64,000 nt of DNA from Bacillota bacterium (GTDB lineage: Bacteria > Bacillota > Ch66 > Ch109). The notes beneath the pieces were generated by a model. The model was not told where the DNA came from. It worked only from the letters and a program-made list of their open reading frames with translations, and ran no database searches. Where the stretch lies: assembly GCA_050952625.1 (NCBI GenBank), contig JBMNLH010000001.1, forward strand, positions 960,001 to 1,024,000, written 5' to 3'. Shown here in pieces: positions 1,875-20,246 of this stretch. Made by a program: the position numbers and the translations under genes. Within the stretch, counting starts at the first letter, position 1. The number at the start of each line of letters is the position of its first letter.

Positions 1875-3245
1875 TTAACTGTTGTCAGTCTCAGGATTAT
1901 AGGGTTTAGTGCCGGTGTCACCGTTTTCGATAATTTTTGTACTTTGTGGTCTCTCGTCTTGTTGAACAAAATAATAAGCAGCAGCATTATTTGGTATAGA
2001 ATCAGTTTGGTTATCAGTTATAATCGTGGGTCTGTGCTTCCAAAGAGCAACTGGCGACCTAGAAGTAATAATAGGAGTATCCGAAGGTATAGTCTGGTCT
2101 TCCTCTTCTTGTTTAACGAGATCAGCTATACTATTTTCTATAATTTGGAGACGGGAGACTAGGTTAGCTAGCAAGTCATCGTATTTAGTTTGTATGTTCA
2201 GATCAGCCAAGTCGTTTTCAATTACCTGGAGACGGGAGACTAGGTTAGCTAGCAAGTCATCGTATTTAGTTTGTATATTCAGATCAGTCAAGTCGTTTTC
2301 AATAACCTGGAGGCGAGAGGTTAGGCTAACTAAGTCTTCGGCTTTAGCTCTTTTATCAAGCTCGCTAAATACTAATTCAATAGATTGAAAGTGGTAAATC
2401 ATTTCTTCTAACGGTTTAATAAGGCTGGCTTTAATTTCCAGGGTTTGAAGGCGAGAGATTATATCATCAAGAAGACCTTCATCGTTTTTTCTGTTCATTT
2501 CCGTTAGTTCTTGTTCTAAAGCTTGGAGACGAGATGTCAAATTTTTTAGTAATTCGTTTATTTTCCTGTTTTCTAATTCCTGCTCTATGTTCCAGCTTCG
2601 ATTTTTAACATATTCGGCTTGTTCGCCAGTTAATACGCCTTGTATTTGATCTAGATTAATTGTATCGGGTAGTAAGTAAATTTTAGTATCTTCTGTTTGG
2701 TAAACTAGGTTTTCATTATTTAAAAATTGTTCAAGTTCGGGAATGTCTAGAGGTGGATCACTTGTATCAGGGATTTGATTTGTAATCTCTTCTTGGTCTG
2801 ATTTCGATTTTTTCATATGTTTTTTGCCTCCGTGTTGATTTTTCTTGTTATTATGAAGCTTAGGATTTATCGGTTTTAAACGGTTAGCTTTTGCCTGGGA
2901 GGAGATTTTCCGGTTTTTTACCTTAGACGAGTTTGCAATCCGGGTATCAATTACTTTTGCTTTCGATTCAAGTTCTATCTCGTTAAGCGGTTTAAAAACA
3001 ATAGGTTCAAATTCTACATTTAGAAGTGGTTGATTTTCGATATTTTGGTCAATTAAAGATGAGGGTTTTTCGATAGCAATTATTTGAGGAAGTGCCAAAT
3101 TCCCTACAGCCTTGAACTCTTTAATTATTGATTTATGGACCTTCTCCTCAGTTGGTTTTGATCCAGGTTTTGAGCTTTTAGATTTTTTTTTCCCAATGGG
3201 AAGTCGATGCTGGGCAGATAGTAACGGTTTAACGTTAGGGTCCAT
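1875..3245 (-). CDS. Hypothetical coiled-coil protein with internal 27-aa repeats, possibly spore-associated
   Basis: 456-aa ORF with a basic low-complexity N-terminus and repeated SRLQVIENDL.DLNIQTKYDDLLANLV; AAGGAG RBS; sigma-K-like promoter upstream. Confidence 0.65.
   Translation of the reverse strand: MDPNVKPLLSAQHRLPIGKKKSKSSKPGSKPTEEKVHKSIIKEFKAVGNLALPQIIAIEKPSSLIDQNIENQPLLNVEFEPIVFKPLNEIELESKAKVIDTRIANSSKVKNRKISSQAKANRLKPINPKLHNNKKNQHGGKKHMKKSKSDQEEITNQIPDTSDPPLDIPELEQFLNNENLVYQTEDTKIYLLPDTINLDQIQGVLTGEQAEYVKNRSWNIEQELENRKINELLKNLTSRLQALEQELTEMNRKNDEGLLDDIISRLQTLEIKASLIKPLEEMIYHFQSIELVFSELDKRAKAEDLVSLTSRLQVIENDLTDLNIQTKYDDLLANLVSRLQVIENDLADLNIQTKYDDLLANLVSRLQIIENSIADLVKQEEEDQTIPSDTPIITSRSPVALWKHRPTIITDNQTDSIPNNAAAYYFVQQDERPQSTKIIENGDTGTKPYNPETDNS
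2132..2330 (-). repeat. 81-bp intragenic tandem repeat (about 2.4 copies)
   Basis: GGAGACGGGAGACTAGGTTAGCTAGCAAGTCATCGTATTTAGTTTGTAT occurs at 2147 and 2228, 81 bp apart. Confidence 0.9.
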
Positions 3246-3377: not shown

Positions 3378-3446
3378 TTAACCACCCATGCTCGCTAGGC
3401 ACAACCACGGATGAAAATAACACAAACTATAAGGAAAGTATTATTT
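3378..3446 (+). repeat. Dispersed repeat family A
   Basis: TTAACCACCCATGCTCGCTAGGCACAACCACGGATGAAAATAACACAAAC matches copies at 42543, 58991 and 11668. Confidence 0.8.
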
Positions 3447-3475
3447 ACTTATAGGCATAAAAAGAGGCCCTGTCG

Positions 3476-3580
3476 AGTGAACTCGTTCAGCTTCGCTGAA
3501 CATCGAGGCGTCAGGTGGAGACTCTACTCCACCTGACGTTTGAACAAGAAAACCCCCACTTATAGAAGTAGGGGTCTTTT
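3476..3580 (+). repeat. Dispersed repeat family B (multi-hairpin, MITE-like)
   Basis: AGTGAACTCGTTCAGCTTCGCTGAAC...CGTCAGGTGGAG/CTCCACCTGACG...ACCCCCACTTATAGAAGTAGGGGT; related copies at 20146 and 25755. Confidence 0.75.
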
Positions 3581-4908: not shown

Positions 4909-5202
4909 TTATGGTTTGTATTTATTGGATGGGGAATCCATTGACAGTTCGCGCATCAGTTTTTGAATGGCTCGCTTCTCAATCCGACTAACATAACTCC
5001 TGGAGATTCCTAACATCCTAGCTATTTCTCGCTGGGTTTTTCGAAAACTGTTAAACAATCCAAAACGTAAGACTAGGACGTTTCTTTCGCGTGGGGATAG
5101 TCGTTTGACTCTTTCACGTAATCGGTCTTCCTCAAAACGTCCCTCTACTGTCTCTTGAACTATCTCCGGTTCAGTGCCTAGAACATCTAGCAGGGTGATT
5201 TC
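4909..5202 (-). CDS. sigK: sigK 3' half (spoIIIC-like; sigma regions 3-4), no start codon of its own
   Basis: Manual minus-strand translation: EITLLDVLGTEPEIVQETVEGRFEEDRLRERVKRLSPRERNVLVLRFGLFNSFRKTQREIARMLGISRSYVSRIEKRAIQKLMRELSMDSPSNKYKP*. It contains the sigma-K region 4 HTH TQREIA..LGISRSYVSRIEK. Not in the ORF track. Confidence 0.95.
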   Translation of the reverse strand, partial: EITLLDVLGTEPEIVQETVEGRFEEDRLRERVKRLSPRERNVLVLRFGLFNSFRKTQREIARMLGISRSYVSRIEKRAIQKLMRELSMDSPSNKYKP

Positions 5203-5226
5203 GTTAACCTCTCCATGTTATCTATT
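5178..5226 (-). other. Left recombination site (attR-like hybrid: P arm plus sigK B' arm); core GA at 5202-5201
   Basis: Minus strand reads ATAGATAAC-ATGGAGAGG-TTAAC-[GA]-AATCACCCTGCTAGAT; its P arm is the inverted mirror of the P' arm at 9648-9670. Confidence 0.85.
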
Positions 5227-5247
5227 GTATTAACCCGAGACAAAAGA

Positions 5248-5510
5248 CTACTTTTTATAAATGTCTCCGCGTGGCCCGATGACCTCAATAATTATTAATT
5301 GATCTTCAATTATAAGGTCATAAATAATCCGTATGTCGCCAATGCGACCCCTGTACTTCTGATTAAAGCCCCGTAACTGCTTAATATTTGTCCGCTGAGG
5401 GGATCAACGGAAATGGCTTCAATTGCAGCCGCAATACGTTTTTGGGTAGCCCTATCAACACGTTTAAGATAGTTGCGAGGCTGAGCTAACAGCTTGACCT
5501 CATAGGTCAA
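5248..5510 (-). pseudogene. RelE/ParE-family toxin, frameshifted near 5390
   Basis: A TTG start overlaps the antitoxin stop. MTYEVKLLAQPRNYLKRVDRATQKRIAAAIEAISVDPLSG continues in another frame as NIKQLRGFNQKYRGRIGDIRIIYDLIIEDQLIIIEVIGPRGDIYKK*, a typical RelE C-terminus. Confidence 0.8.
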
Positions 5511-5877
5511 GTTCTCGTTTGAGCTCATCCCAGCTAACGCCACCTTTCCGACGTTGTTCCTTACTCAAGGCTGCTATTTCATTTTCTGGCCAATCTAAGT
5601 AAATAGTATCTTGGCAGGAAGGGCAGATGAATTCATCATGCCAGGTTTTAGTTTCATCCGTGTTTGGATTATCCAGTAGATCAGCTAACACTAGGGGTGT
5701 GCTGCATGTGGTACAAAACGGGTCAATGTAGAAGGGGCTGCTCCCAGGCCGTGGTATGACCGCACTTTCTGGTTGTACCCTTTCTACTAGTTTTTCAAGA
5801 TACTTTTTGGCTCTCTCTATGTTTTGCTCCGGAAGCCTAGCAACTAGGCGGTAAAGCTCTTCCTTGGGTAAGCTCAT
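5500..5877 (-). CDS. Putative antitoxin with inserted CxxC...CxxC zinc ribbon
   Basis: Upstream of and overlapping relE; N-terminal KEELYRLVARLPE and C-terminal SWDELKRELDL are typical of small RelE partners; central CTTC and CPSC motifs. Confidence 0.65.
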   Translation of the reverse strand: MSLPKEELYRLVARLPEQNIERAKKYLEKLVERVQPESAVIPRPGSSPFYIDPFCTTCSTPLVLADLLDNPNTDETKTWHDEFICPSCQDTIYLDWPENEIAALSKEQRRKGGVSWDELKRELDL

Positions 5878-6026
5878 TAAAAATCATCCCTTCTGCTTTT
5901 CCCATTTTTTCTACCTTTCCCACAGTACTTTAGGTAGTTTTACCCCCTTCAACAATTAATCCAGTCTCTGGAGAGTAGCGTACATAATTATATTACCAAT
6001 TAGTTACTATAACTGTAAATTATAAT

Positions 6027-7598
6027 TCATATTAATAGATAAACATTAAGCGTAAAGTTATCAAGCCTTGCGCTTTTTTCTTTATAATACACGGCTTTAT
6101 CTACGATAGTTTTAAGTAGTGTATTTTTCTTTACTACATCGTCGGTGGCTTGGTAAGCGTCCAGGACATGCCGAATGGTCGGGATGATCTGCTGGTGGGT
6201 GCGCTCCCGTTCCTCAATTTCATTTATTTCATCCTGAACCTGTTGCAGAGACTTGCTCGCGGCCTCGATCCTCTCAGTAACAATCTTATTGCGTTCAAGG
6301 TAGGTGGGTATATCATAGACACCCTGTTCCAGAAGGTCCTGGAGGCGTGACTTTTGCTTTTGCAGTTCCTCTAGCTGCCTGGTCAAGTTCTCGATAACCG
6401 AATTAGGTATAAGCGGTTCAGCCGTGGCCGCTATCTCCCGGGCCAGTTGCTCCTGGTTCAGTTCTAAGTTTGCTAACTCTTCCTCCAAGGTTTGCAACAA
6501 CCTTTTTTCAACAAAACTGAAAAGGGACGATTTGTTGTCACATCCTGCATGGATGCATTTACACATATTAGATTTGTGTCCGGACTTTTGTTTATTGGAT
6601 TGTAAAACCATTCGGCGTCCGCATTTGCCACAAACGATCAGACCGGCTAAAGGATTTTTAGGTTTCGTCTTTGTGCGCACAACAGTATTTTTTTTAAGGT
6701 TGTTTTGTGCAGCATAAAAAATATCCTTCTCGATTAAAGGTTCATGCTTCCCTTCTACATCAATCCACTGCTCCCTGGGACGAGCATAACCTATTTTACG
6801 GGATCGATCCCGATATTTCTTTTTCCACTGAATTCGTCCGATATAAACCTCATTGCTAAGTATAAAACGAACAACAGAAGGTTCCCAAACACCTCCTCTA
6901 ACCGGGCTTTTAACCTTCATTTCATTTAATCGATTAGCAATTCTAGTACTGCCAATAGGGTTGCCATCGTTACCATTAACGTACCAGTTATAAATTAGAC
7001 GAACAATTTCAGCATCTTTATTGGGGATCAGGACCTTATCAGGCCCTCGATCGTAGCCAAAAGGGGGACGGGTCCCGATATACTTCCCGTCCTTAACCGC
7101 CATTACCCGACCCCGTTGAAGACGCTTGTTGATAATCTTCAGTTCCCGTCTAGCCATGAAAGCCTCGAATTCGCTCCATTCTTCATCGAGCTCATCATCC
7201 AAGTCATACACCTTCCGAGGGGTAATGATGAGGGTAGAGGAGGCTTTAAACGCCGCCAGAATGGTCCCCTGATCAATCATGTCGCCCCGTCCAAGCCGGT
7301 CCAGATCCATGCATAGGACCGCATCATATTCACCCGCTTCAACTTCATGGAGGAGGCGTTGCATTTCTGGACGGTCTGATATATGTTCGCCACTAACAAT
7401 TTCTTCGAAAATGGATACTACGTTAAGACGGTTGCGCTGGGCCAGTTCGGTAAGAGCTTTGCGATGCTTAGATAAAGTATCACCTTCACCCCGAGATTCA
7501 GCTTCAAAATCTGCCCGGGATTTACGAAGATACATGGCTACTTTATTAAGATCACGAGGAAAATCGGCTGGCAAGATAAACACCCCTGACGATAACAT
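6027..7598 (-). CDS. Large serine recombinase (SpoIVCA-like role predicted)
   Basis: YLRKS catalytic motif, RPEMQRLL, DLDRLGR, recombinase domain (PFGY, YIGRIQW), zinc ribbon LAGLIVCGKCG...CKC...C, then a coiled coil; 523 aa. Confidence 0.95.
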   Translation of the reverse strand: MLSSGVFILPADFPRDLNKVAMYLRKSRADFEAESRGEGDTLSKHRKALTELAQRNRLNVVSIFEEIVSGEHISDRPEMQRLLHEVEAGEYDAVLCMDLDRLGRGDMIDQGTILAAFKASSTLIITPRKVYDLDDELDEEWSEFEAFMARRELKIINKRLQRGRVMAVKDGKYIGTRPPFGYDRGPDKVLIPNKDAEIVRLIYNWYVNGNDGNPIGSTRIANRLNEMKVKSPVRGGVWEPSVVRFILSNEVYIGRIQWKKKYRDRSRKIGYARPREQWIDVEGKHEPLIEKDIFYAAQNNLKKNTVVRTKTKPKNPLAGLIVCGKCGRRMVLQSNKQKSGHKSNMCKCIHAGCDNKSSLFSFVEKRLLQTLEEELANLELNQEQLAREIAATAEPLIPNSVIENLTRQLEELQKQKSRLQDLLEQGVYDIPTYLERNKIVTERIEAASKSLQQVQDEINEIEERERTHQQIIPTIRHVLDAYQATDDVVKKNTLLKTIVDKAVYYKEKSARLDNFTLNVYLLI

Positions 7599-7641
7599 CT
7601 TTATCTATTGTTATTCGTCGAGGAGAGGGGAATTCCTGCAG

Positions 7642-7836
7642 TTACTTCCTTAACTCCAAGCGTAGCTGAATCAGTACCAACCGCAATTTCCCCATAAGTC
7701 TAATCAATTCCTCCCATAAGCGAAACTGGGTCAACGGGGAGCCAGTAAATGTTTGCTCGTTTGATAACCACCTGGCCAGCCCGAGTGTTCTTTCGACACG
7801 TGGATCGCTAGGTAAAACATCAGTCCTTTTCATCAT
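7642..7836 (-). CDS. Small hypothetical ORF immediately upstream of the recombinase
   Basis: 64-aa ORF with an AAGGA RBS, co-oriented with the recombinase; no recognisable motif. Confidence 0.35.
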   Translation of the reverse strand: MMKRTDVLPSDPRVERTLGLARWLSNEQTFTGSPLTQFRLWEELIRLMGKLRLVLIQLRLELRK

Positions 7837-8027
7837 AAATTCCTTGAATCCCTAGTAAATAGATTGGAAGTAGAATGTTAGGTTAATTACTAAACTTTAA
7901 TCGATCTCAAATTAGAAGTGCCTATATAAATATAAAAACCTGTCTTTTTATTATCCACAGGTTTTCAGTCGTATATCTATTTAATTTATCTAATCCTGTT
8001 AATTTCTGAATGTTTAATGACATTTTC

Positions 8028-8160
8028 TCACGCTGCCTTATTCACAAGAGCTAGGGCCTTTATCAACTTTTTTCGGTCCCATAATTCAATGTTAGAGTTT
8101 TTGGCTTCTTTCTGAGCCTGTTCAGATAAGCGAGTCTTAATGTTTTTTTCGTTTTCTTGT
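8028..8160 (-). pseudogene. Possible remnant of an Mrr-like endonuclease C-terminus
   Basis: Startless frame TRLSEQAQKEAKNSNIELWDRKKLIKAL resembles the A...A....VELWDR..L end of Mrr_cat domains. Confidence 0.35.
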
Positions 8161-8180
8161 CAGTCAAGAGAAATCGTGTA

Positions 8181-8372
8181 TTACTTTAACCGCTTAAGAA
8201 TAACGACTTCCTCTTCCTGGGTGGATAAGCGTTTGTCAATTCTTTTGATATCTTCCCAAACGTAACGGAGTTCATTTTTTATTGACGTTACATCTGCTTG
8301 GAGTAACTTTTGGCCTTCGGCCAATGTCTGGAGTTGTTGTAGTACAAGCTCCTGGAATTTCCCGTTATCCAT
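8181..8372 (-). CDS. Small coiled-coil hypothetical protein (true start probably MDNGKFQELVLQQL)
   Basis: AAGGAG RBS before the ATG at 8372; heptad pattern. Confidence 0.6.
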   Translation of the reverse strand: MDNGKFQELVLQQLQTLAEGQKLLQADVTSIKNELRYVWEDIKRIDKRLSTQEEEVVILKRLK

Positions 8373-8411
8373 AGCAATCTCCTTTCTGGTGCCCGATACG
8401 GATCTCAATTT

Positions 8412-8470
8412 AACGCGGCCAAGGAGATAATCGGGCGATACATTAAAAAAGTCAGCAATAACTAAACATA
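8412..8470 (-). pseudogene. Relic of an XRE-family HTH repressor (last two helices)
   Basis: LVIADFFNVSPDYLLGR matches the characteristic IADFFNVSLDYLLGR end of HTH_3 domains; the N-terminal helices are absent. Confidence 0.65.
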
Positions 8471-8644
8471 GCATCACCTTCCAGTTTATTATACTCACAT
8501 AATGTAAGTAAAACAACGCTCCTCACGTAAGTGAAAATAATTTGAATATGGGGCCCGACTGCTTTCGATCTGTGAGTATAATAACAAATAAAGTTGCTTA
8601 CTAAAAATATCCATGATTGGAGGTAATCACTTACAAAACACACG

Positions 8645-8674
8645 GTTTGTCCTTGACCGACAACTGCATAGATC
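8645..8674 (+). promoter_or_regulatory. SpoIIID-like box plus mother-cell (sigma-E-type) -10 upstream of a small ORF
   Basis: 8645-8654 reads AAGGACAAAC on the minus strand (WWRRACARNY consensus); CATAGAT at 8667. Confidence 0.5.
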
Positions 8675-8693
8675 AGTAGTGGGTGATGCCTTC

Positions 8694-8870
8694 ATGAAAC
8701 CGGAGATTAAGCTGGTCGGCGAAAAGAAAATAGAACGGACAACAATCCGCGTATTCCGTCCAGAGCTAAGTTTTGAAGAGCGAGAGTTTCGAATGAAGTT
8801 ACTGCACACTGCCGTTGCGGACTGCTATCGTTCGTCGACGAATCGGGTAGAGGGTAGCGGCACTAGTTGA
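8694..8870 (+). CDS. 58-aa protein, candidate recombination directionality factor
   Basis: MKPEIKLVGEKKIERTTIRVFRPELSFEEREFRMKLLHTAVADC...; GGGTGA RBS; lies inside the element; SpoIIID-like box upstream. Function is inferred. Confidence 0.55.
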   Translation: MKPEIKLVGEKKIERTTIRVFRPELSFEEREFRMKLLHTAVADCYRSSTNRVEGSGTS

Positions 8871-9145
8871 GGAGTACAAGATAGGTTGTACTAAGATAAG
8901 AATTTACGAATTAAATTTTATGCATCACTAATGTAGCCTGATTATCTTCTTCAGTACCGACACTTGGCCGGCTCCGAAACTATCAAAAAACCAATTACTC
9001 CCCCTAGAATCAAACTAATAATTGTGTTCTCAATCACGTTTAAACACCCTCTCTTTTTGATTTCACCTTATAAGCCCATCCGGAATAAACTGTAATTAAA
9101 CGCCAGGGTTTTTTCTCCAATTGATTTCCACATTTATCCTTCGAT

Positions 9146-9183
9146 TTGGACAGGCACTAGTTTACGATAACAACCATATTATG
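9146..9183 (+). promoter_or_regulatory. sigK promoter with SpoIIID-like box and sigma-E/K-type -10
   Basis: TTGGACAGGC (9146-9155) fits WWRRACARNY; CACT-N16-CATATTAT with the -10 at 9175. Confidence 0.6.
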
Positions 9184-9216
9184 TAGAGCAAGCTCCGCTT
9201 CAAAGGGGGATTAAAT

Positions 9217-9647
9217 GTGTACCTGGATCTTACGACACCCTGGTTATCCTTTTGTTTTCCTGGATTGCTCCTTTTAGTTGGATATATCACTAATCAAACT
9301 TTCCCGCATCCACTGTCCGAAGATCAAGAAACATCATGCCTTCGACGTTTTCGCAATGGCGATGAGGAGGCTAGAAATTTACTTATTGAACATAATCTTC
9401 GGCTCGTCGCGCATATTTTAAAAAAATTTGATGGAACTGGCGAAGATACCGATGATCTTATTTCTATTGGAACCATTGGATTGATTAAAGCAATCAACAC
9501 CTTCGATCCAGATAAAGGTGCTAAACTAGCCACTTATGCTGCCCGTTGCATCGAAAACGAGATCCTAATGCATTTACGAGCATCACGGAAAAATAAAGGT
9601 GAGGTATCCCTATACGATCCTATTGGCACGGATAAAGAAGGTAATGA
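9217..9647 (+). CDS. sigK: sigK 5' half (spoIVCB-like; pro-sequence plus regions 1.2-3); ORF runs on to a stop at 9726 in non-sigK sequence
   Basis: Hydrophobic pro-sequence then [57 protein letters not shown] and [16 protein letters not shown]; similarity to sigma-K ends right after this. Confidence 0.95.
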
Positions 9648-9670
9648 GTTAAGCTTGCTAAGTTATCTAT
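9622..9670 (+). other. Right recombination site (attL-like hybrid: sigK B arm plus P' arm); core GA at 9646-9647
   Basis: GATAAAGAAGGTAAT-[GA]-GTTAA-GCTTGCTAA-GTTATCTAT; GTTAA and GTTATCTAT mirror TTAAC and ATAGATAAC of the left site at identical distances from the core. Confidence 0.85.
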
Positions 9671-10119
9671 CAATTTACTGTGGTCAAAAAGTCCCAGGCC
9701 AGCGGGCACAGGAGCGTTTTTCATAGTAAGGCCAGTGCAATTTGTAAGTATTAACTAATTATAGCTTAACTTATTAAATTTAACTGTTTTTAATTTATTG
9801 CTAATATATCCAATAATACCTTTCCCCTGATTTGTCACACGGAATGAAAAAAGTCTCAAGCCTCCAGGTGTTATACGGACGTGCCAAGAAAACAATAGTT
9901 TTTCTCCGTCGATTCCGGTAAACGTATGCTCGTCTTTAAAACGAATTATTGTTTCTGGGCTTTCTGGAGTAAACTTACTTGAAAATTGACTAGGGTCAAA
10001 TTTTCCAGGTTGCCATCTAGTAAATTATTTGTTTAACTCATCTAATTAAAAAGTTTAATGCAACACTAATAATCAGGCTAACGAAAGATTCTTAAACTCA
10101 ACTGGAATCTATGGTTGAC

Positions 10120-10693: not shown

Positions 10694-11562
10694 GCAAAAG
10701 GAAAGAAATAACTGGTGTGACTGAAATATTTGGGGTGATGGGCTATCCGGTAGCCCATTCGCTATCTCCGGCCATACAAAATAAGGCATTTGATTATTAT
10801 GAATTAGATAAGATTTATTTGGCTTTTGCTGTACCCCCCAACTGCCTGACTCAAGCCTTGAATGGTTTAAGGGCTTTAGGCGTAATCGGGGTTAATGTCA
10901 CCTTGCCCTATAAAGAGGCTGTAGCCAGACAGGTCGATCTCCTTTCTCCAGAGGCCCAATTGATTGGGGCGGTAAATGTCTTGCGTTTTGACCAGGATCG
11001 TTTGGTTGGTCATAATACCGACGGTACCGGATTTCTGCAGTCACTTGAACAAGATGCTGGCTTTACGCCTGCCGGAAAAAAGGTTCTGGTTCTAGGGGCT
11101 GGCGGAGCAGCGAGAGCAGTTACTTTGACCCTGGCTCGATTTGGGGCGGCGCATATAAGCATAGCCAATCGAACTCGAAAACGGGCTACGGAACTGGCGA
11201 CAGAAGTTGAGGCAAGAACTGGCCTAAAAGCAGTGGGGCTAAGCTTAGAACCAAGTGAACTGAAACCCTGGGTTCCCGAGGCGGATTTGGTGATTCAAGC
11301 TACCTCGGTTGGTTTATACCCAAAGGGTGAATCGCCAAGTTGGTTTAATCCGGATTGGCTATCGCCAACTGCGTTAGTCTGCGATCTCATTTATCGGCCT
11401 CGACCCTCTGAGTTTTTAAAGAGGGCTGCTTTAAGAGGATGTCGTACCTTAGACGGGTTAGGCATGCTCTTATATCAAGGGGCGCAATCTTTCACCTGGT
11501 GGACGGGTTTGGAAGCACCGGTCGACGTAATGCGGCAGTCATTGTTAAAACAGCTTGGCTGA
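10690..11562 (+). CDS. aroE: Shikimate dehydrogenase
   Basis: HSLSP, NVTLPYK, GAVN, NTDG, GAGGAARA and DGLGMLLYQG motifs. Confidence 0.95.
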   Translation: MSKRKEITGVTEIFGVMGYPVAHSLSPAIQNKAFDYYELDKIYLAFAVPPNCLTQALNGLRALGVIGVNVTLPYKEAVARQVDLLSPEAQLIGAVNVLRFDQDRLVGHNTDGTGFLQSLEQDAGFTPAGKKVLVLGAGGAARAVTLTLARFGAAHISIANRTRKRATELATEVEARTGLKAVGLSLEPSELKPWVPEADLVIQATSVGLYPKGESPSWFNPDWLSPTALVCDLIYRPRPSEFLKRAALRGCRTLDGLGMLLYQGAQSFTWWTGLEAPVDVMRQSLLKQLG

Positions 11563-11667
11563 AGGAAAGTAGAATCAAATAGGAATATTACCATGTTTTC
11601 CTGCGTCCAAAAATAGGCACTCCAGAAAAGTGGTTTCTGTGTTTTTGGATTGCAGTAAGAATAAGCA

Positions 11668-11737
11668 AATAACACATTCGTTATCGTTTGTGTTGTTTTC
11701 ATAAAGTGGTTGTGCTCAGATAGGTATGAGTGGTTTA
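11668..11737 (-). repeat. Dispersed repeat family A, degenerate copy
   Basis: Minus strand reads TAAACCACTCATACCTATCTGAGCACAACCACTTTATGAAAACAACACAAAC. Confidence 0.6.
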
Positions 11738-11863
11738 TCTGAATCCGGAAAGCTTAATACAGATAGTGTTAAATTAGGCAGCAAATGCATGAAAATAAAC
11801 TAATTGGCTATTGTTAACAGGCGATTGGTCAATTTATCTTGGGAAAGAAGAGGTGGGGCCTAG

Positions 11864-12337
11864 ATTGCTAATCAAGGTTCAATTAAACATGTAGCTGGGT
11901 TTACCCTGGTTGAGCTATTAGCAGTATTGGTGGTTCTTGGAATGGTTTCTCTAATGGCTTGGCCGGTGTTTAATCGGACATTGGCTAACCACCAACTCAG
12001 GCAAACTGCTGAGCAAATGGCTTGGGAATTACGAGCGCAGCAGCAAGAAGCCATTGCTTTTGGTTCCTCACGCCAAATTGAGTTTTCCCTTTACGGTAAT
12101 TACTATAATGTGTTAAAACCAGAACTTCGGCGAGTTTACCTGCCCGAAAAAATCCGTTTTCATTATATAACCATCCCTAAAACGGGAGGGAACCGCTATT
12201 TGTTAGATTTTGACATTCTCGGTCGACCTAATCTTGGGGGGACGATTGCTTTGAAAAACGAATTTGGTTCGGAGCAATATGTAATCATCACACCGGTAAT
12301 CGGTCGAATCAGAATCTCCGATAAACCGCCGGAGTGA
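11864..12337 (+). CDS. Prepilin-like protein (GspH/FimT/ComGD-like), probable ATT start
   Basis: Frame upstream of the tracked ORF reads IANQGSIKHVAG|FTLVELLAVL (class III signal); GAGGTG RBS 8 nt before the ATT; in-frame stop at 11861. Confidence 0.75.
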   Translation: MANQGSIKHVAGFTLVELLAVLVVLGMVSLMAWPVFNRTLANHQLRQTAEQMAWELRAQQQEAIAFGSSRQIEFSLYGNYYNVLKPELRRVYLPEKIRFHYITIPKTGGNRYLLDFDILGRPNLGGTIALKNEFGSEQYVIITPVIGRIRISDKPPE

Positions 12338-12541
12338 GGTCCACTCTAATAGTAACTATCCTCGTGTTTGAACTCGTCAGCAGGCAGATTGGGAACGAAA
12401 ATAAATGATGCAAATCGTCAATCACGGACCTTCGTTATTACACGGCGCAGTCAGGGGTTTTCCTGTTCGGATGGTGTTGCCAAGTAATATGGGGGTCTAC
12501 TTAAATAATTTGACATAAAACTTTTATGGTGGTGTGACGTA

Positions 12542-13774
12542 ATGAGTACTTTACGATATCTAACAGCCGGAGAATCCCATGGACCGGCCTTGACTGCTAT
12601 CCTGGAAGGCGTACCCGCGGGTCTATTTTTGTTAACCGAGGCAATTAACCGTGATTTGATCCGACGTCAGGGAGGTTATGGCCGAGGAGGACGAATGAAG
12701 ATCGAGCGTGATCGAGTTACCCTGCTTTCAGGGGTCCGGGGAGGAGTGACCCTGGGGAGCCCGATTAGCCTGCTTATTCAAAACCGTGATTGGGAAAACT
12801 GGTCAACCATAATGGGGCCAGGACCAGAAGCAAATACTAATGAACGGAAAGTAACCCGACCACGGCCTGGTCATGCAGATTTGGGAGGGGCGTTAAAATA
12901 TCGCCATCAAGATCTGCGAAATGTTCTGGAACGAGCCAGTGCGCGAGAAACCGCGGCCCGGGTGGCCGTAGGATCAATCGCCCGAACCATCCTGGAGCAG
13001 CTAGGAGTTACAGTTATGGCGTGGGTTGAACAAATCGGTCCGGTCCGGTCAACTGAAGCCTCCCGGGAGGTTTTTGAGCAATGGCTTACCGAAGGGTCCA
13101 ACTTCTCTGGTCCAACGGACCAATCATTTCTCCAAAGTTGGCGGCAGAGAATCGAGAAATCACCAGTTTACTGCCCGGATGTGGAAGCTTCCCGGAAAAT
13201 GGTCGAAGCGATTGATTCTGCCCGAGAAGAGGGAGACACACTCGGGGGAATTTTTGTGATCACTGCCTGGGGTTTACCTTCTGGGCTGGGCAGTTATGTC
13301 CATTGGGATCGTCGGTTAGATGGCCGTTTAGCCGGTGCCGTGATGAGTATTCCCGGCATTAAGGGAGTGGAGATCGGGCAAGGGTTTGAAGTGGCTCAAG
13401 AACGAGGCTCAAAAGCTCACGATGAGATATTTTATTCTTCCCAAGCCGGCATTTACCGGGAGACTAATCGAGCTGGCGGGTTGGAGGGAGGCGTCACTAA
13501 CGGACAGCCGCTGGTAGTCAGAGCAGCGATGAAACCAATTCCGACCCTGATTAATCCATTGCGCAGCGTGGACCTCGAAACGCGAGAGGCGGTCTTCGCA
13601 GCAGTGGAACGGTCGGATGTTTGTGCTGTGCCGGCCGTGAGCGTTGTTGGTGAGGCTGCAGTCGCTTTTGTTTTAGCCCAAGCGGTGTTGGAAAGATTTT
13701 CAGGAGATACGATGGAGGAGCTCCAAAAGGACTGGGCAGATTACTTTGATTACCTCCGGAAAGTGAGGCAATAG
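12542..13774 (+). CDS. aroC: Chorismate synthase
   Basis: [21 protein letters not shown] and RSDVCAVP motifs. Confidence 0.97.
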
Positions 13775-13777
13775 TTA

Positions 13778-14368
13778 TTGAAGACCAATATAACCTTGAT
13801 CGGCTTTATGGGAACCGGCAAAACAGCGGTGGGGCGAAGTCTGGCCTCTCTAGTAGAAAAAGACTTTGTGGATACTGATGCCGAAATAGAGAAAGTGGTT
13901 GGCCTAAAAGTTGAAGAGATTTTTTCCCGCTTCGGCGAGGTGCGTTTTCGTTCCGAAGAGTCACTGATAATCAAGAAGGTAGCTGCACGGCAAAACTGTG
14001 TCATCTCGACTGGCGGGGGAGCAGTTTTAAACAAAGTCAATTGGGAGGCCTTGAGGGCCTCTTCTTATATCGTGTGTCTGGTTGCTTCCCCGGAAGTAAT
14101 TCAATCTAGAGTAGCCCGTCGAGTTCGTCCCTTGCTCCGCAAGGATCGTTCACTAGACCGAATACAAGAACTGTTAAAAGAAAGGGAACCCTTTTACCAG
14201 GGAGCAGATTTGTACATCGATACCTCTGAGGTCAGTTGCCAGGAAGTGGCGCAACAAATCTATGACTGGTGGAACAAACAGGAAAAAATGCAAGGGAGCT
14301 CGGTAAAGACATCCAGTAAGAACATAGATGATAAGATTATTATGGAAAAGGCGCGAAACGAACTCTAG
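13778..14368 (+). CDS. aroK: Shikimate kinase
   Basis: GFMGTGKT P-loop, DTD, STGGG and RPLL. Confidence 0.95.
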   Translation: MKTNITLIGFMGTGKTAVGRSLASLVEKDFVDTDAEIEKVVGLKVEEIFSRFGEVRFRSEESLIIKKVAARQNCVISTGGGAVLNKVNWEALRASSYIVCLVASPEVIQSRVARRVRPLLRKDRSLDRIQELLKEREPFYQGADLYIDTSEVSCQEVAQQIYDWWNKQEKMQGSSVKTSSKNIDDKIIMEKARNEL

Positions 14369-14394
14369 AAGATTGTAGTAAGGACGGGATTTAG

Positions 14395-15498
14395 TTGAAC
14401 ACTGTTAAGCACTCTTTAATGGTTAACTTGGGTGCAAACTCTTACCCTATTTATATCCAGGCCGGAGTATTGGAACACCTAGGCTTATTGGTGCAACAGG
14501 CGGGACTGGGGCCCAATGTTTTATTGGTCACTAATCCGACCGTGGGGGGTTATTATTTAGTCCCAGCGCAGAGAAGTTTGGAAGCGGCTGGACTTAGGGT
14601 CAGCGTGGCGACGGTGCCGGATGGGGAGGAGTATAAAAGCTTGGAATGGGCTAGTCGCCTGTATGATGCAGCTTTGGAGGCGAGGCTTGACCGACGGTCG
14701 CCAGTGGTTGCCTTGGGCGGCGGGGTAATCGGCGATTTGGCCGGCTTTGTTGCGGCTACCTATCTTAGAGGCGTTCCCTTGATTCAGATCCCGACCACTC
14801 TTTTGGCCCAAGTGGACAGCAGTGTCGGAGGAAAGGTGGCGGTGAACCACCCCCGAGGCAAAAACCTGATCGGTGCTTTTCACCAGCCGGCTCTGGTTTT
14901 AATTGATCCGGTTCTGCTCAGGACATTATCCCAAAGAGAATATATTGCTGGCATGGCGGAAGTGATCAAGTACGGCGTAATCTGGGATGGGGATTTCTTT
15001 GCTTATCTAGAAGAGGAAATAGCTAGGGCACTTCAATTGGATACCGAAGTCACCACGAGGGTGATCACGCGCTGTTGTTCGATCAAGGCTAAGATTGTCG
15101 AGCAGGATGAGCGGGAATATGGGGTCCGGACCCTGTTAAATCTGGGTCACACCGTGGGGCATGCCATAGAGGCAATAACCGGCTATCAAGCGTACCGACA
15201 TGGGGAAGCAGTCGCCATCGGCATGGTGGCAGCCGGTTTGCTGGCGGTTGAGCTTGGCTGGTGGGAAAAGTCAGACTGTGAGCGGTTAAATCAACTATTG
15301 ACCCGAACCGGCCTACCAATGACAATTCCAGGGGTTGACCCCAATCGACTTTTGGAACTGATGCAGCACGATAAGAAAGTGCTGGATGGAACCCTGAGAT
15401 GGGTGTTGCCCCGGAAGTTGGGCGAGGCAGGGGTGGTTAGTCAACTATCCGATGATCTGGTGTTAAGGTCTTTAAGGAGGATAATTTTAGATCGCTAG
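14395..15498 (+). CDS. aroB: 3-dehydroquinate synthase
   Basis: GGGVIGDLAGF, PTTLLAQVDSSVGGK, LNLGHT and HGEAV. Confidence 0.97.
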   Translation: MNTVKHSLMVNLGANSYPIYIQAGVLEHLGLLVQQAGLGPNVLLVTNPTVGGYYLVPAQRSLEAAGLRVSVATVPDGEEYKSLEWASRLYDAALEARLDRRSPVVALGGGVIGDLAGFVAATYLRGVPLIQIPTTLLAQVDSSVGGKVAVNHPRGKNLIGAFHQPALVLIDPVLLRTLSQREYIAGMAEVIKYGVIWDGDFFAYLEEEIARALQLDTEVTTRVITRCCSIKAKIVEQDEREYGVRTLLNLGHTVGHAIEAITGYQAYRHGEAVAIGMVAAGLLAVELGWWEKSDCERLNQLLTRTGLPMTIPGVDPNRLLELMQHDKKVLDGTLRWVLPRKLGEAGVVSQLSDDLVLRSLRRIILDR

Positions 15499-15681
15499 AT
15501 TGAAGTGCTTGAGAATTATAATAACTAGAGAAGATATTGGTAATAAATAAGGCGTCAGAGAAGGAATTGATTGGGGAATATAGAATATATAATACATTTA
15601 AGTCGAATATAGGTTATTACTATTTTGAGGTTTTGATAATAAACGAGATTAATCAATTCTTGTGTTGGTTTGGAGTGAGAA

Positions 15682-17373
15682 ATGTATCCTCAAAGGCACT
15701 TGCTTGGTGAAGTGATTAGAGATTTGGGCTTTATTAATCAGTTTCAGCTTGAAGAGGCCCTTCAGGAACAAAAGAATAGCGGCAAGCGATTAGGAGAAGT
15801 TCTGTTAGAAAAAGGTTATCTCACCGAAGAGGCTTTACTCAGCTGTTTGGAGCAGCATTTAGGAATCTCCAGAATAGGTTTAAGCCAGATAAATTTGAAT
15901 GGCGATCAACTTGAATTAATTCCACTTTCTATAATCCAAAGGCATCAAGTTGTGCCAGTTAAAATAAAAGACAATCAGCTTATCTTGGCGATGGTTGATC
16001 CACTAAATGTTTTAGCGATTGAGGATGTTCGGATGGCTTCTGGTTATGAAGTTATCCCAGTTTTAATCAGCCCACGGGAGATTAAATTAATAATTAATCG
16101 TTTAGTCAGTTTAAGAGCGCGGGTTGATCTGGAAAAAGCCGCCCAAAGCCTTAAAGAGGACACGGAATCTTACTTAGCGGCCAACCAGTCCGAACTACGA
16201 ACTCAGGAACCGGCAATTGAACCACTAGTAGTTAAAATAGTTAATGGAGTTATTAACCAAGGAGTGGTAAGCCGAGCGAGTGATATTCATATTGAACCAC
16301 AGGAGAAGGAACTGCGAATCCGCTACCGCATTGACGGTGTTTTGCATGAAGCTATGTCCTTGCCCCTGAAGAGCCACGGATCAATCGTATCTCGAGTAAA
16401 GATAATGGCTAATCTGGATATTGCGGAAAGACGCTTGCCGCAAGATGGAAGGATTCATCTATCTGGTGAAACCAACCCCTTGGATTTGCGAATTTCTACG
16501 CTGCCAACAGTTTTTGGCGAGAAGGTGATGCTTAGGATTCTGGATCGCCGGGAAACAGTTCCCACAATTGATAAGCTGGATCTACGCGGTTCAAATCTAA
16601 TTAATTTTAAAGATATCATTTCTCGATCCGCTGGTTTGATTTTAGTTTGCGGTCCGACTGGAAGCGGTAAGACAACAACACTGTATTCCCTTCTTACCTT
16701 TCTCAACAGCGTGACGCGGAATATGATCACTCTGGAAGACCCGGTTGAGTGTATTATCCCCGGGATTAATCAAGTTCAGATTAATTCGCGAAGCTGTTTT
16801 GGTTTTGCCTCTGGGTTGCGTTCCGTTTTACGTCAAGATCCGGACGTAATTATGGTCGGTGAAATCAGGGATCGAGAAACGGCTGAGCTAGCAGTTCGGG
16901 CAGCAATTACCGGACATTTGGTGCTAAGTACTATTCATACCCGTCGGGCAGCCGGGGCGGTGACTCGTTTAATCGATATGGGTATTGAACCATATCTATT
17001 AATGTCTTCTTTAGTAGGAGTTATCGCCCAGAGATTGGTTAGAAGGGTTTGTCTTGAGTGTGGGACCCCAATTCCAGTTACTGTCGAGTCAGCCCGCCAG
17101 TTGGGCATCAACCCTGAAAATGCCCAATTAAGGCAAGGTCAGGGGTGCTCTTGGTGTGGTGATACCGGCTACTGGGGTCGGATGGCGATCCATGAGGTTA
17201 TGGTGATAACCCCTGAAATTCAAGAATTGATCAGGCAGCAAGTGCCCGAAGGGATATTGGAAAAGACTGCGGTTGCTCAAGGAATGATAACCCTCAGGCA
17301 GGATGGTCTGGACAAGGCTTTACTGGGCGAAACCGCTATTGAAGAGGTTTTGAATGCTGTTGATCAGTATTAG
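15682..17373 (+). CDS. pilB: Type IV pilus/T2SS assembly ATPase with N-terminal MshEN-like domain
   Basis: RLGEVLLEKG MshEN-like motif, ASDIHIEP, GPTGSGKTT, LRQDPDVIMVGEIRD and zinc Cys pairs. Confidence 0.92.
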   Translation: MYPQRHLLGEVIRDLGFINQFQLEEALQEQKNSGKRLGEVLLEKGYLTEEALLSCLEQHLGISRIGLSQINLNGDQLELIPLSIIQRHQVVPVKIKDNQLILAMVDPLNVLAIEDVRMASGYEVIPVLISPREIKLIINRLVSLRARVDLEKAAQSLKEDTESYLAANQSELRTQEPAIEPLVVKIVNGVINQGVVSRASDIHIEPQEKELRIRYRIDGVLHEAMSLPLKSHGSIVSRVKIMANLDIAERRLPQDGRIHLSGETNPLDLRISTLPTVFGEKVMLRILDRRETVPTIDKLDLRGSNLINFKDIISRSAGLILVCGPTGSGKTTTLYSLLTFLNSVTRNMITLEDPVECIIPGINQVQINSRSCFGFASGLRSVLRQDPDVIMVGEIRDRETAELAVRAAITGHLVLSTIHTRRAAGAVTRLIDMGIEPYLLMSSLVGVIAQRLVRRVCLECGTPIPVTVESARQLGINPENAQLRQGQGCSWCGDTGYWGRMAIHEVMVITPEIQELIRQQVPEGILEKTAVAQGMITLRQDGLDKALLGETAIEEVLNAVDQY

Positions 17374-19658: not shown

Positions 19659-20150
19659 ATGCGAGCTCTTTTGCTTGGGATCAGGTTATGGCGCGAAAAA
19701 GGGTTTACGTTAATCGAGTTGCTGGCAGCATTATCCATAATTTCTTTAGTGATTTTGATTGCTTCGACGGTCCTTTTGACCGGTCAAAAGGCAATATATC
19801 AAAATGGTAGTGTCGTCGAAATGCAGCAAGTCGTTCGTTCTACTATGCAGTTTATGATTAGAGAAATTCGGTCGGCCCAGAAAATAGTAGAGATTCAACC
19901 AAACCGATTGACGCTGATTAATCATGAGGGAAATAAAATAGCATACCGGATGAGCGGAGGGACCTTGTGGCGAGATTTTTACCTTACTCCTACTTCGACT
20001 ATTAGGAGTACAAGCCACCCTTTAGCGAATCAAATTGTAGACATAACTTTTACTGCCAGTGAAACCAGGGGAGTTAAGATTTGTTTAACTGCCGGGCAAG
20101 AAAATAAAGAGTATTATTTAAGTACTTTTGTATACCCACGGGTAGAGTGA
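19659..20150 (+). CDS. Minor pilin (PilW-like)
   Basis: KG|FTLIELLAA signal; REIRSA motif. Confidence 0.8.
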   Translation: MRALLLGIRLWREKGFTLIELLAALSIISLVILIASTVLLTGQKAIYQNGSVVEMQQVVRSTMQFMIREIRSAQKIVEIQPNRLTLINHEGNKIAYRMSGGTLWRDFYLTPTSTIRSTSHPLANQIVDITFTASETRGVKICLTAGQENKEYYLSTFVYPRVE

Positions 20151-20246
20151 ACTTGTTTAGCTTCGTCGAACACAGAGGCATCAGACGGAGACTCTGCTTC
20201 ACCTGAAGCGGTAAACAAGGTAATCCCCACATAGAAGGGAGTCTTC
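20146..20246 (+). repeat. Dispersed repeat family B, degenerate copy overlapping the pilin stop codon
   Basis: AGTGAACTTGTTTAGCTTCGTCGAACACAGAGGCATCAGACGGAGACTCTGCTTCACCTGA aligns with the copy at 3476. Confidence 0.7.

Follow-up and report, generated by a model that had tools for sequence, protein, structure and literature searches.

A small open reading frame with a mother-cell-type promoter as a candidate directionality factor for inversion of a split sigK gene in a Bacillota bacterium

The split sigK gene and its putatively invertible segment

The window, i.e. the whole stretch of 64,000 nucleotides analysed here, contains a sigK gene in two halves, between which lie a large serine recombinase gene, a small open reading frame (ORF) of 58 aa and remains of a phage. 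The features are as follows.

4909 to 5200, minus strand: 3' half of sigK
5178 to 5225, minus strand: left att site, made up of a phage arm and the 3' side of sigK, with its GA crossover at 5202-5201
5248 to 5877, minus strand: cargo, an antitoxin-like ORF (5500-5877) and a frameshifted RelE/ParE-like ORF
6027 to 7598, minus strand: SprA-like large serine recombinase, open frame of 523 aa
7642 to 7836, minus strand: orphan ORF of 64 aa, rejected as the directionality factor
8181 to 8516, minus strand: remains of a phage repressor region that points away from the 58-aa gene (phrog_8, E 2e-5)
8694 to 8870, plus strand: predicted recombination directionality factor of 58 aa (beta-hairpin plus helix), from homology, linkage and a complex model
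8857 to 8907, plus strand: what is probably left of a second family member, which lacks a start codon and is truncated at the IS end (profile E 6.7e-4)
8911 to 8942, plus strand: left boundary of the flipped block with the sigK 5' half, made of the remnant of an IS terminal repeat (8911-8933) and a 9-bp target copy (8934-8942)
9217 to 9647, plus strand: 5' half of sigK
9623 to 9670, plus strand: right att site, made up of the 5' side of sigK and a phage arm, with its GA crossover at 9646-9647
10046 to 10080, plus strand: right boundary of the same block, with a remnant of the other IS terminal repeat (10046-10071) and the 9-bp target copy in inverted form (10072-10080)

Joining both halves at the GA dinucleotide gives an in-frame SigK of 240 aa, and the second product of this recombination is a symmetric attP, ATAGATAAC-N14-GA-N14-GTTATCTAT, with 14-bp arms. 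A crossover at the shared TTAA was ruled out, because its product is out of frame. The invertible segment (5201-9647) is 4,447 bp long and includes the 58-aa ORF. No other sigK copy was found in the genome, so that the split gene is its sole sigK; spoIIID was found in the genome. As in skin-type elements, sigK is divided by att sites and recombination restores the frame. The halves are inverted rather than direct, so that recombination would flip the segment and release no circle.

Contigs from three other studies (X12, X15 and X9) cross the junctions in the orientation of the window: the left att site is bridged by X12 and X15, the right one by X15 and X9, and the stretch from the ORF to the sigK promoter also by X15 and X9. 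These bridging contigs rule out an assembly artefact as the cause of the inverted layout. One joint in X9, from 10068 to 7979, was taken not as a recombination joint but as an IS copy near 7979, because its loose end matches the interior of the genome's IS; from this insertion, the IS family appears to be still mobile in the element.

In a genome of the same genus (G001), sigK is intact and divergent from yqeG. Compared with this arrangement, the block 8934-10068 of the window is flipped, and it is flanked by both terminal repeats of a multi-copy 1.6-kb IS and by an inverted 9-bp target copy. Since the 58-aa ORF is located to the element side of this IS scar, it is an original gene of the element. 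An 89-codon open frame (9755-10024, minus strand) that lacks a start codon and lies between the IS end and attL looks like a cargo gene fragment. In two genomes of the same family (L030 in G003 and L031 in G004), sigK is split elsewhere, near codon 115; the recombinase of that element is distantly related (about 25% identity), and the orientation is direct in G003.

The small ORF, its relatives and its recombinase

The 58-aa ORF starts with ATG, preceded by GGTGA 7 nt upstream, and the ORF finder lists it as the tail of an 85-aa frame beginning with the ATG at 8613. It shares its element with the intact recombinase, whose true start is probably a few codons inside the 523-aa frame, and with the attL and attR sites. 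Its predicted fold (mean pLDDT 89) is a beta-hairpin (residues 5-13 and 16-23) followed by a single helix (27-54). Searches of Pfam, PHROGs and NCBIfam found no family for the 58-aa, 85-aa or 64-aa ORF, and a PDB sequence search gave no significant match. Fold searches gave no Foldseek match at E<=0.001 and a best Z of 4.0, being uninformative at such a small size. The best Atlas scores were 0.87 and 0.85, which serve as leads only; the nearest clusters are unnamed phage proteins.

The stump at 8857-8907 lies directly 3' of the ORF; the phage of Int30 likewise encodes two directionality factors, and a search at the other breakpoint did not turn up the rest of the second paralogue. A 23-nt inverted repeat with TACTCAC cores (8486-8584), located between the ORF and the repressor remnant, likely represents old phage operators. 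At 6382 and 6619, both within the recombinase gene, other runs have variants, both non-synonymous.

The best genome match of the recombinase (L016, 67% identical) belongs to a 2.2-kb element inserted in sigK at the same crossover, in direct orientation. This element contains only the recombinase, a homologue of the 58-aa ORF placed head-to-head with it (56% identity over 43 aa) and a 74-aa ORF without match in the genome of the window. In a second species (L042), the layout is like that of L016, also in direct orientation, with a recombinase 65% identical and a homologue 50% identical over 42-43 residues. These mini elements span 2.2-2.4 kb and hold just one further ORF besides recombinase and homologue. 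L043 is a full prophage in sigK, with a recombinase 71% and a homologue 54% identical, the latter sitting in the early operon opposite the repressor. Among the homologues, synonymous differences lie far above non-synonymous ones (pS 0.68-0.95 vs pN 0.29-0.35 over 42-46 codons). A survey of 15 skin elements reports the recombinase as the only shared gene (bioRxiv 2022.02.25.481979); the family of the 58-aa ORF is a second recurring gene in SprA-like sigK elements.

The att arm at the 3' end of the recombinase gene is nearly alike in the window (5178-5225) and in L043 (11520-11575). It is followed by GA and the sigK 3' half in the window, and by TC and the reversed sigK 5' half in L043; aligned in this way, the two loci indicate that the orientation of the element within sigK is switched through the central dinucleotide. 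In L043, sigK is doubly interrupted (11552-16372), its 5' half being itself split near codon 66, and the second element carries a different large serine recombinase and two metabolic genes.

A seed profile of five close sequences matched 45 representatives at E<=0.001, and the 45 family proteins gave no Pfam match above cut-off and weak PHROGs matches, all unnamed. P0013 (963 aa, 14 repeats) was excluded from the family alignments as a repeat artefact. Two distinct members, P0004 and P0006, have locus tags of one assembly, suggesting two elements or a mixed bin.

For linkage, we used 80 metagenome loci picked by the recombinase alone (the best 80 of 496) and 7 other loci, several of them duplicates or close kin. 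Five profile rounds gave 47 matches at E<=0.05, all upstream of the recombinase on the opposite strand. At E<=0.01, a match was present at 39 of the 55 loci with at least 3 kb upstream and at 28 of the 37 with at least 9 kb, and reversed decoys gave none in the five-round search. In the reverse search, the wider profile matched 13 of 401 genomes, and 11 loci from 10 matched genomes were checked, with the genome of the window, L016 and L042 set aside. A SprA-like recombinase was divergent from the match within about 8 kb at 8 of the 11 loci (one of the 8 being in the seed); the other three comprise one weak match with a distant recombinase on the same strand and two without recombinase. Searching the genomes with the wide profile A6 gave 7 of 401, three being weak matches inside long frames. 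Among viral sequences, the five-sequence profile found 4 loci, 3 with a divergent SprA-like recombinase (one being L043), while the fourth ends 2.7 kb upstream; a viral scan using P0018 confirmed nothing. At L142 (7544-10134), a family member and a SprA-like recombinase lie at the end of a 5' half like that of a sporulation gene, which we take to resemble spoVFB, as in vfbin. From the family, candidate directionality factors can be named for dozens of SprA-like recombinases; such factors are usually missed by sequence searches and are needed by genome engineers.

The directionality factors of Bt24 and Dn29, both active in vivo, partner LRKSR-type recombinases, as do those of Nm60 and Int30 (Shin et al. 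2025, PMC12286644). The Bt24 and Dn29 factors are small hairpin-plus-helix proteins like the 58-aa ORF, whose partner is also an LRKSR-type (SprA-like) recombinase. Compared by eye, the Bt24 factor and the family member of L060 agree at 80 of 82 residues, and their recombinases are identical over the first 79 residues; the Dn29 factor resembles the L051 member. L051 is a first-round match (E 1.1e-6), and L060 joins the profile only in round 2 (E 6e-7). The 58-aa ORF is about 11% identical to the L060 member (alignment A10), and direct profile-profile comparison of its family with the verified factors was weak (P 0.007, probability 5.5%, E 0.2). Given the second-round entry and the weak direct comparison, kinship with the Bt24 factor is likely rather than proven, and through this transitive link the 58-aa ORF is likely kin to Bt24/Dn29-type factors. 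The available text of PMC12286644 treats these factors as engineering tools and gives no sporulation promoter for them.

The closest solved relative of the recombinase is SPbeta SprA (E 4e-53). Its factor SprB (PMC4191935, PMC11722253; PDB 9DXD and related) likewise has 58 aa, a mother-cell sigma-E/K promoter near the start besides a phage-side promoter, and a C-terminal helix at the DBD2/coiled-coil hinge, a position also predicted for the helix of the 58-aa protein. Unlike the latter, SprB has an N-terminal helix. Five profile rounds gave no match to SprB and further comparisons gave E 0.19 and 0.1, so that no sequence kinship was detected; the fold comparison gave no clear structural match, the model being very small.

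The complex of recombinase residues 290-513 with the 58-aa ORF was predicted with a score of 0.77 (0.76-0.80 in three runs), whereas the best of 3 controls scored 0.00. It passes the score mark, which was attained by 116 of 157 solved complexes and 2 of 215 mismatched pairs. The runs agree in at least 78% of contacts, and the partner pLDDT is at least 73. The predicted contacts on the recombinase are residues 352-381, 462-488 and 502-513, at the DBD2/coiled-coil junction: ORF residues 16-22 pair with the last strand of the recombinase (504-511), and residues 36-46 touch 471-488 and the segment entering the coiled coil. Known factors are reported to add a strand to DBD2 and to place a helix on the inter-hinge segment, so the 58-aa protein is predicted to bind at the site and in the mode of known factors. 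Since solved SprA-SprB structures exist, the pass may reflect likeness to, or memory of, them, and bench tests did not bear out 4 of 11 comparable predictions (Shin et al., PMC12286644).

The promoter region of the small ORF

The following features bear on the transcription of the small ORF, the recombinase and sigK.

7601 to 7639, minus strand: sigma-H-like promoter of the recombinase (7611-7639), overlapping the att-arm-like box ACAATAGATAA (7601-7611)
8619 to 8633, plus strand: in-frame ribosome site GGAGGT, then TTA (ATG in the prophage homologue L043)
8645 to 8654, minus strand: SpoIIID-type box AAGGACAAAC, a WWRRACARNY match, kept in L016 and L042
8667 to 8673, plus strand: sigma-E/K-type -10 CATAGAT, 27 nt before the start codon, as in most family members
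9146 to 9155, plus strand: SpoIIID-type box in the sigK promoter, then CATATTAT; box kept in the same-genus genome

An earlier note, made from the letters alone, had placed the 58-aa ORF inside the invertible segment, behind an exact WWRRACARNY match and a CATAGAT -10, and proposed it as a mother-cell-specific directionality factor. The position of the ORF is borne out by the sequence, the ORF list and the in-frame sigK join, and the -10 is where the note put it. The box is present as an exact match, which by itself carries no weight: the window has 51 such matches where shuffles have 43.8±6.8, and 18 of 100 shuffles get to 51, so the count is no more than chance, and the motif match was dropped as stand-alone evidence. 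The joint pattern of box plus -10 occurs 18 times in the genome. The SpoIIID and sigma-E consensus sequences used are those of the note or those that we assume.

Before the homologues of L016 and L042, TTGTCCTTGA and ATAGATCA are kept at near-equal spacing in one gap-free block, while the flanks diverge, and it is this conservation that raises the putative box above chance. For the family, we collected 41 upstream regions, namely the window and 40 of the 47 matches (five near-duplicates, one partial and one weak match were dropped; seven starts were shifted by hand to a downstream start). A CATA-type -10 located 18-38 nt before the start was found in 32 of 41 family members and in 19 of 352 other genes of the same loci; the -10 together with a GACA/TGTC box further up was found in 15 of 41 and 4 of 352, and in at most 3 in shuffles, but since the patterns were chosen after seeing the sequences, these counts describe rather than test. 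One pattern variant was derived from the window's own site, and related loci are non-independent.

A second in-frame start with a ribosome site lies upstream of the promoter in 8 of the 41 members. The TTA that stands in its place in the window is likely a dead start of the phage operon, which suggests that the phage route was lost and the sporulation route kept. These results make it likely that the ORF is expressed solely in the mother cell, its promoter being read by sigma-E with SpoIIID as activator. Three RNA runs contain only 5-9% of the stretch's words.

The recombinase promoter is called sigma-H-like by a consensus that we assume; the pattern has 59 exact matches in the genome and is loosely kept in L043, not in L016 and L042. 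It may hint at an earlier, unrestricted supply of recombinase, such as is described for C. difficile and SPbeta. In the window, L016 and L043, the recombinase start is closely preceded by an att-arm-like box (TAGATAA), and self-repression of the recombinase through it is possible.

The proposed inversion and alternative readings

Retention in the mini sigK elements, two-way linkage to the recombinase, the complex model, whose prediction the earlier note had suggested, and the conserved promoter all support the note's view of the small ORF, and we consider it very probable that the 58-aa protein serves the SprA-like recombinase of its segment as directionality factor. In known systems, the recombinase alone is reported to join attP and attB and to be inactive on attL x attR, which the factor reverses. 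Here, the recombinase would be present earlier, from its sigma-H-like promoter, and alone would favour the split attL/attR state. In the mother cell, sigma-E and SpoIIID would switch on the 58-aa factor, whose hairpin strand is predicted to pair with the C-terminal strand of the recombinase and whose helix would pack on the coiled-coil base; factor and recombinase would then flip the segment between the att sites and join the sigK halves. Since the genome has only this sigK, a first round of expression would have to rely on sigma-E, not sigma-K, and sigma-E with SpoIIID is the likely trigger. The 58-aa gene and its promoter would ride within the segment and survive the flip. Both products remain on the chromosome, so that recombinase without factor would flip the segment back: cells lacking the factor would restore the split state, and the element would not be lost by its own reaction. 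To this whole mechanism (58-aa factor, mother-cell-only expression and inversion rebuilding sigK) we give a probability of roughly three in four.

Known elements share parts of this scheme. C. difficile CD1234/CD1231 (PMC5025042) and B. subtilis Skr/SpoIVCA (PMC6957869) likewise use a small factor, under sigma-E and SpoIIID in the former and sigma-E in the latter, to confine sigK rebuilding to the mother cell. Their sites are direct repeats and a circle is excised, whereas the sites here are inverted; the 58-aa gene, unlike theirs, is divergent from the recombinase gene. SPbeta leaves spsM by excision, and the outcome here would be inversion within sigK.

Among the other readings, a genuine factor in a system that is now a relic, with no inversion, no sigma-K and no mature spores, is unlikely. 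The inverted layout is recent and looks accidental, given the IS footprints and the intact sigK of G001; decay of the adjoining phage genes, among them a broken toxin and what is left of the repressor, would also suit a relic; and no recombined joint was found in the contigs of four runs out of 24 listed. On the other hand, both att sites, both sigK halves, recombinase, small ORF and both promoters are intact, and 17 runs contain at least half of the stretch's words. Contigs drop rare forms, and mother-cell DNA is rare. Moreover, serine recombinases are reported to invert inverted sites readily, both for the C. difficile pair on an inverted substrate and in inversion assays.

It is very unlikely that the factor is genuine and its timing is set not by the promoter at 8645-8673 but elsewhere, by recombinase level or phage-side read-through. 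The chance-level box motif would fit this, as would the divergent phage promoter region at 8486-8584, which is still there, and CATAGATC, which deviates from what we take to be the sigma-E consensus. In addition, one sigma-E promoter serves both skr and spoIVCA in the B. subtilis skin element (PMC6957869). Mother-cell timing from the ORF's own promoter is favoured by the retention of both boxes in three species with diverging flanks and in the family as a whole, and by the TTA that replaces the upstream start of the prophage homologue.

More improbable still is a phage early gene of other function that travels with SprA-like recombinases, the recombinase needing no factor or a host factor. Any early lytic gene could lie opposite the repressor, similarity to the verified factors is weak when direct, and the nearest Atlas clusters, scoring <0.9, are unnamed. 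Against this, the ORF is kept in mini elements stripped of all other phage genes, its complex model passes at the known site, and its family, by the transitive link, includes a near-identical copy of a verified factor. That the 64-aa ORF at 7642-7836 is the factor has next to no probability: skr also has 64 aa and lies just upstream of spoIVCA (PMC6957869), but the 64-aa ORF, rightly ranked by the earlier note as the weaker alternative, matches only itself among 5.8 billion clusters and one stop-broken sequence in 400 other genomes (E 0.009), lies in DNA missing from the closest elements L016 and L042, and is preceded by neither a ribosome site nor a CATA box where one would be expected.

The predicted 58-aa factor is a new member of a known functional class, and its novelty lies in the sporulation promoter found across the family and in the inversion setting. 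A sigK rebuilt by inversion was not found in the literature searched; none is described in the available sections of PMC5025042, PMC6957869, PMC11722253, PMC11795197, PMC10747680, PMC10745906, PMC4191935 and PMC12286644, or of the main text of bioRxiv 2022.02.25.481979. The 58-aa protein would complete the parts list for a sigK that can be rebuilt solely by inversion, a claim testable with four small parts on a plasmid.

Most family members carry the mother-cell-type promoter. We lean slightly towards the broader view that this strain makes sigma-K by a developmentally timed, self-resetting inversion, and that SprA-like phage factors carry their own sigma-E/SpoIIID promoter, pre-wiring exit in the mother cell. 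If so, this promoter would often be nested in the longer reading frame of a phage operon, prophages would leave the mother-cell chromosome whatever gene they occupy, and elements interrupting sporulation genes would thus arise repeatedly.

Elsewhere in the window, a 456-aa ORF (1875-3245) is built with 81-nt (27-aa) tandem repeats, and intergenic repeats of 42 nt (inverted) and 65 nt (direct) lie at distant positions (3411-3536, 11661-11702 and 20142-20206).
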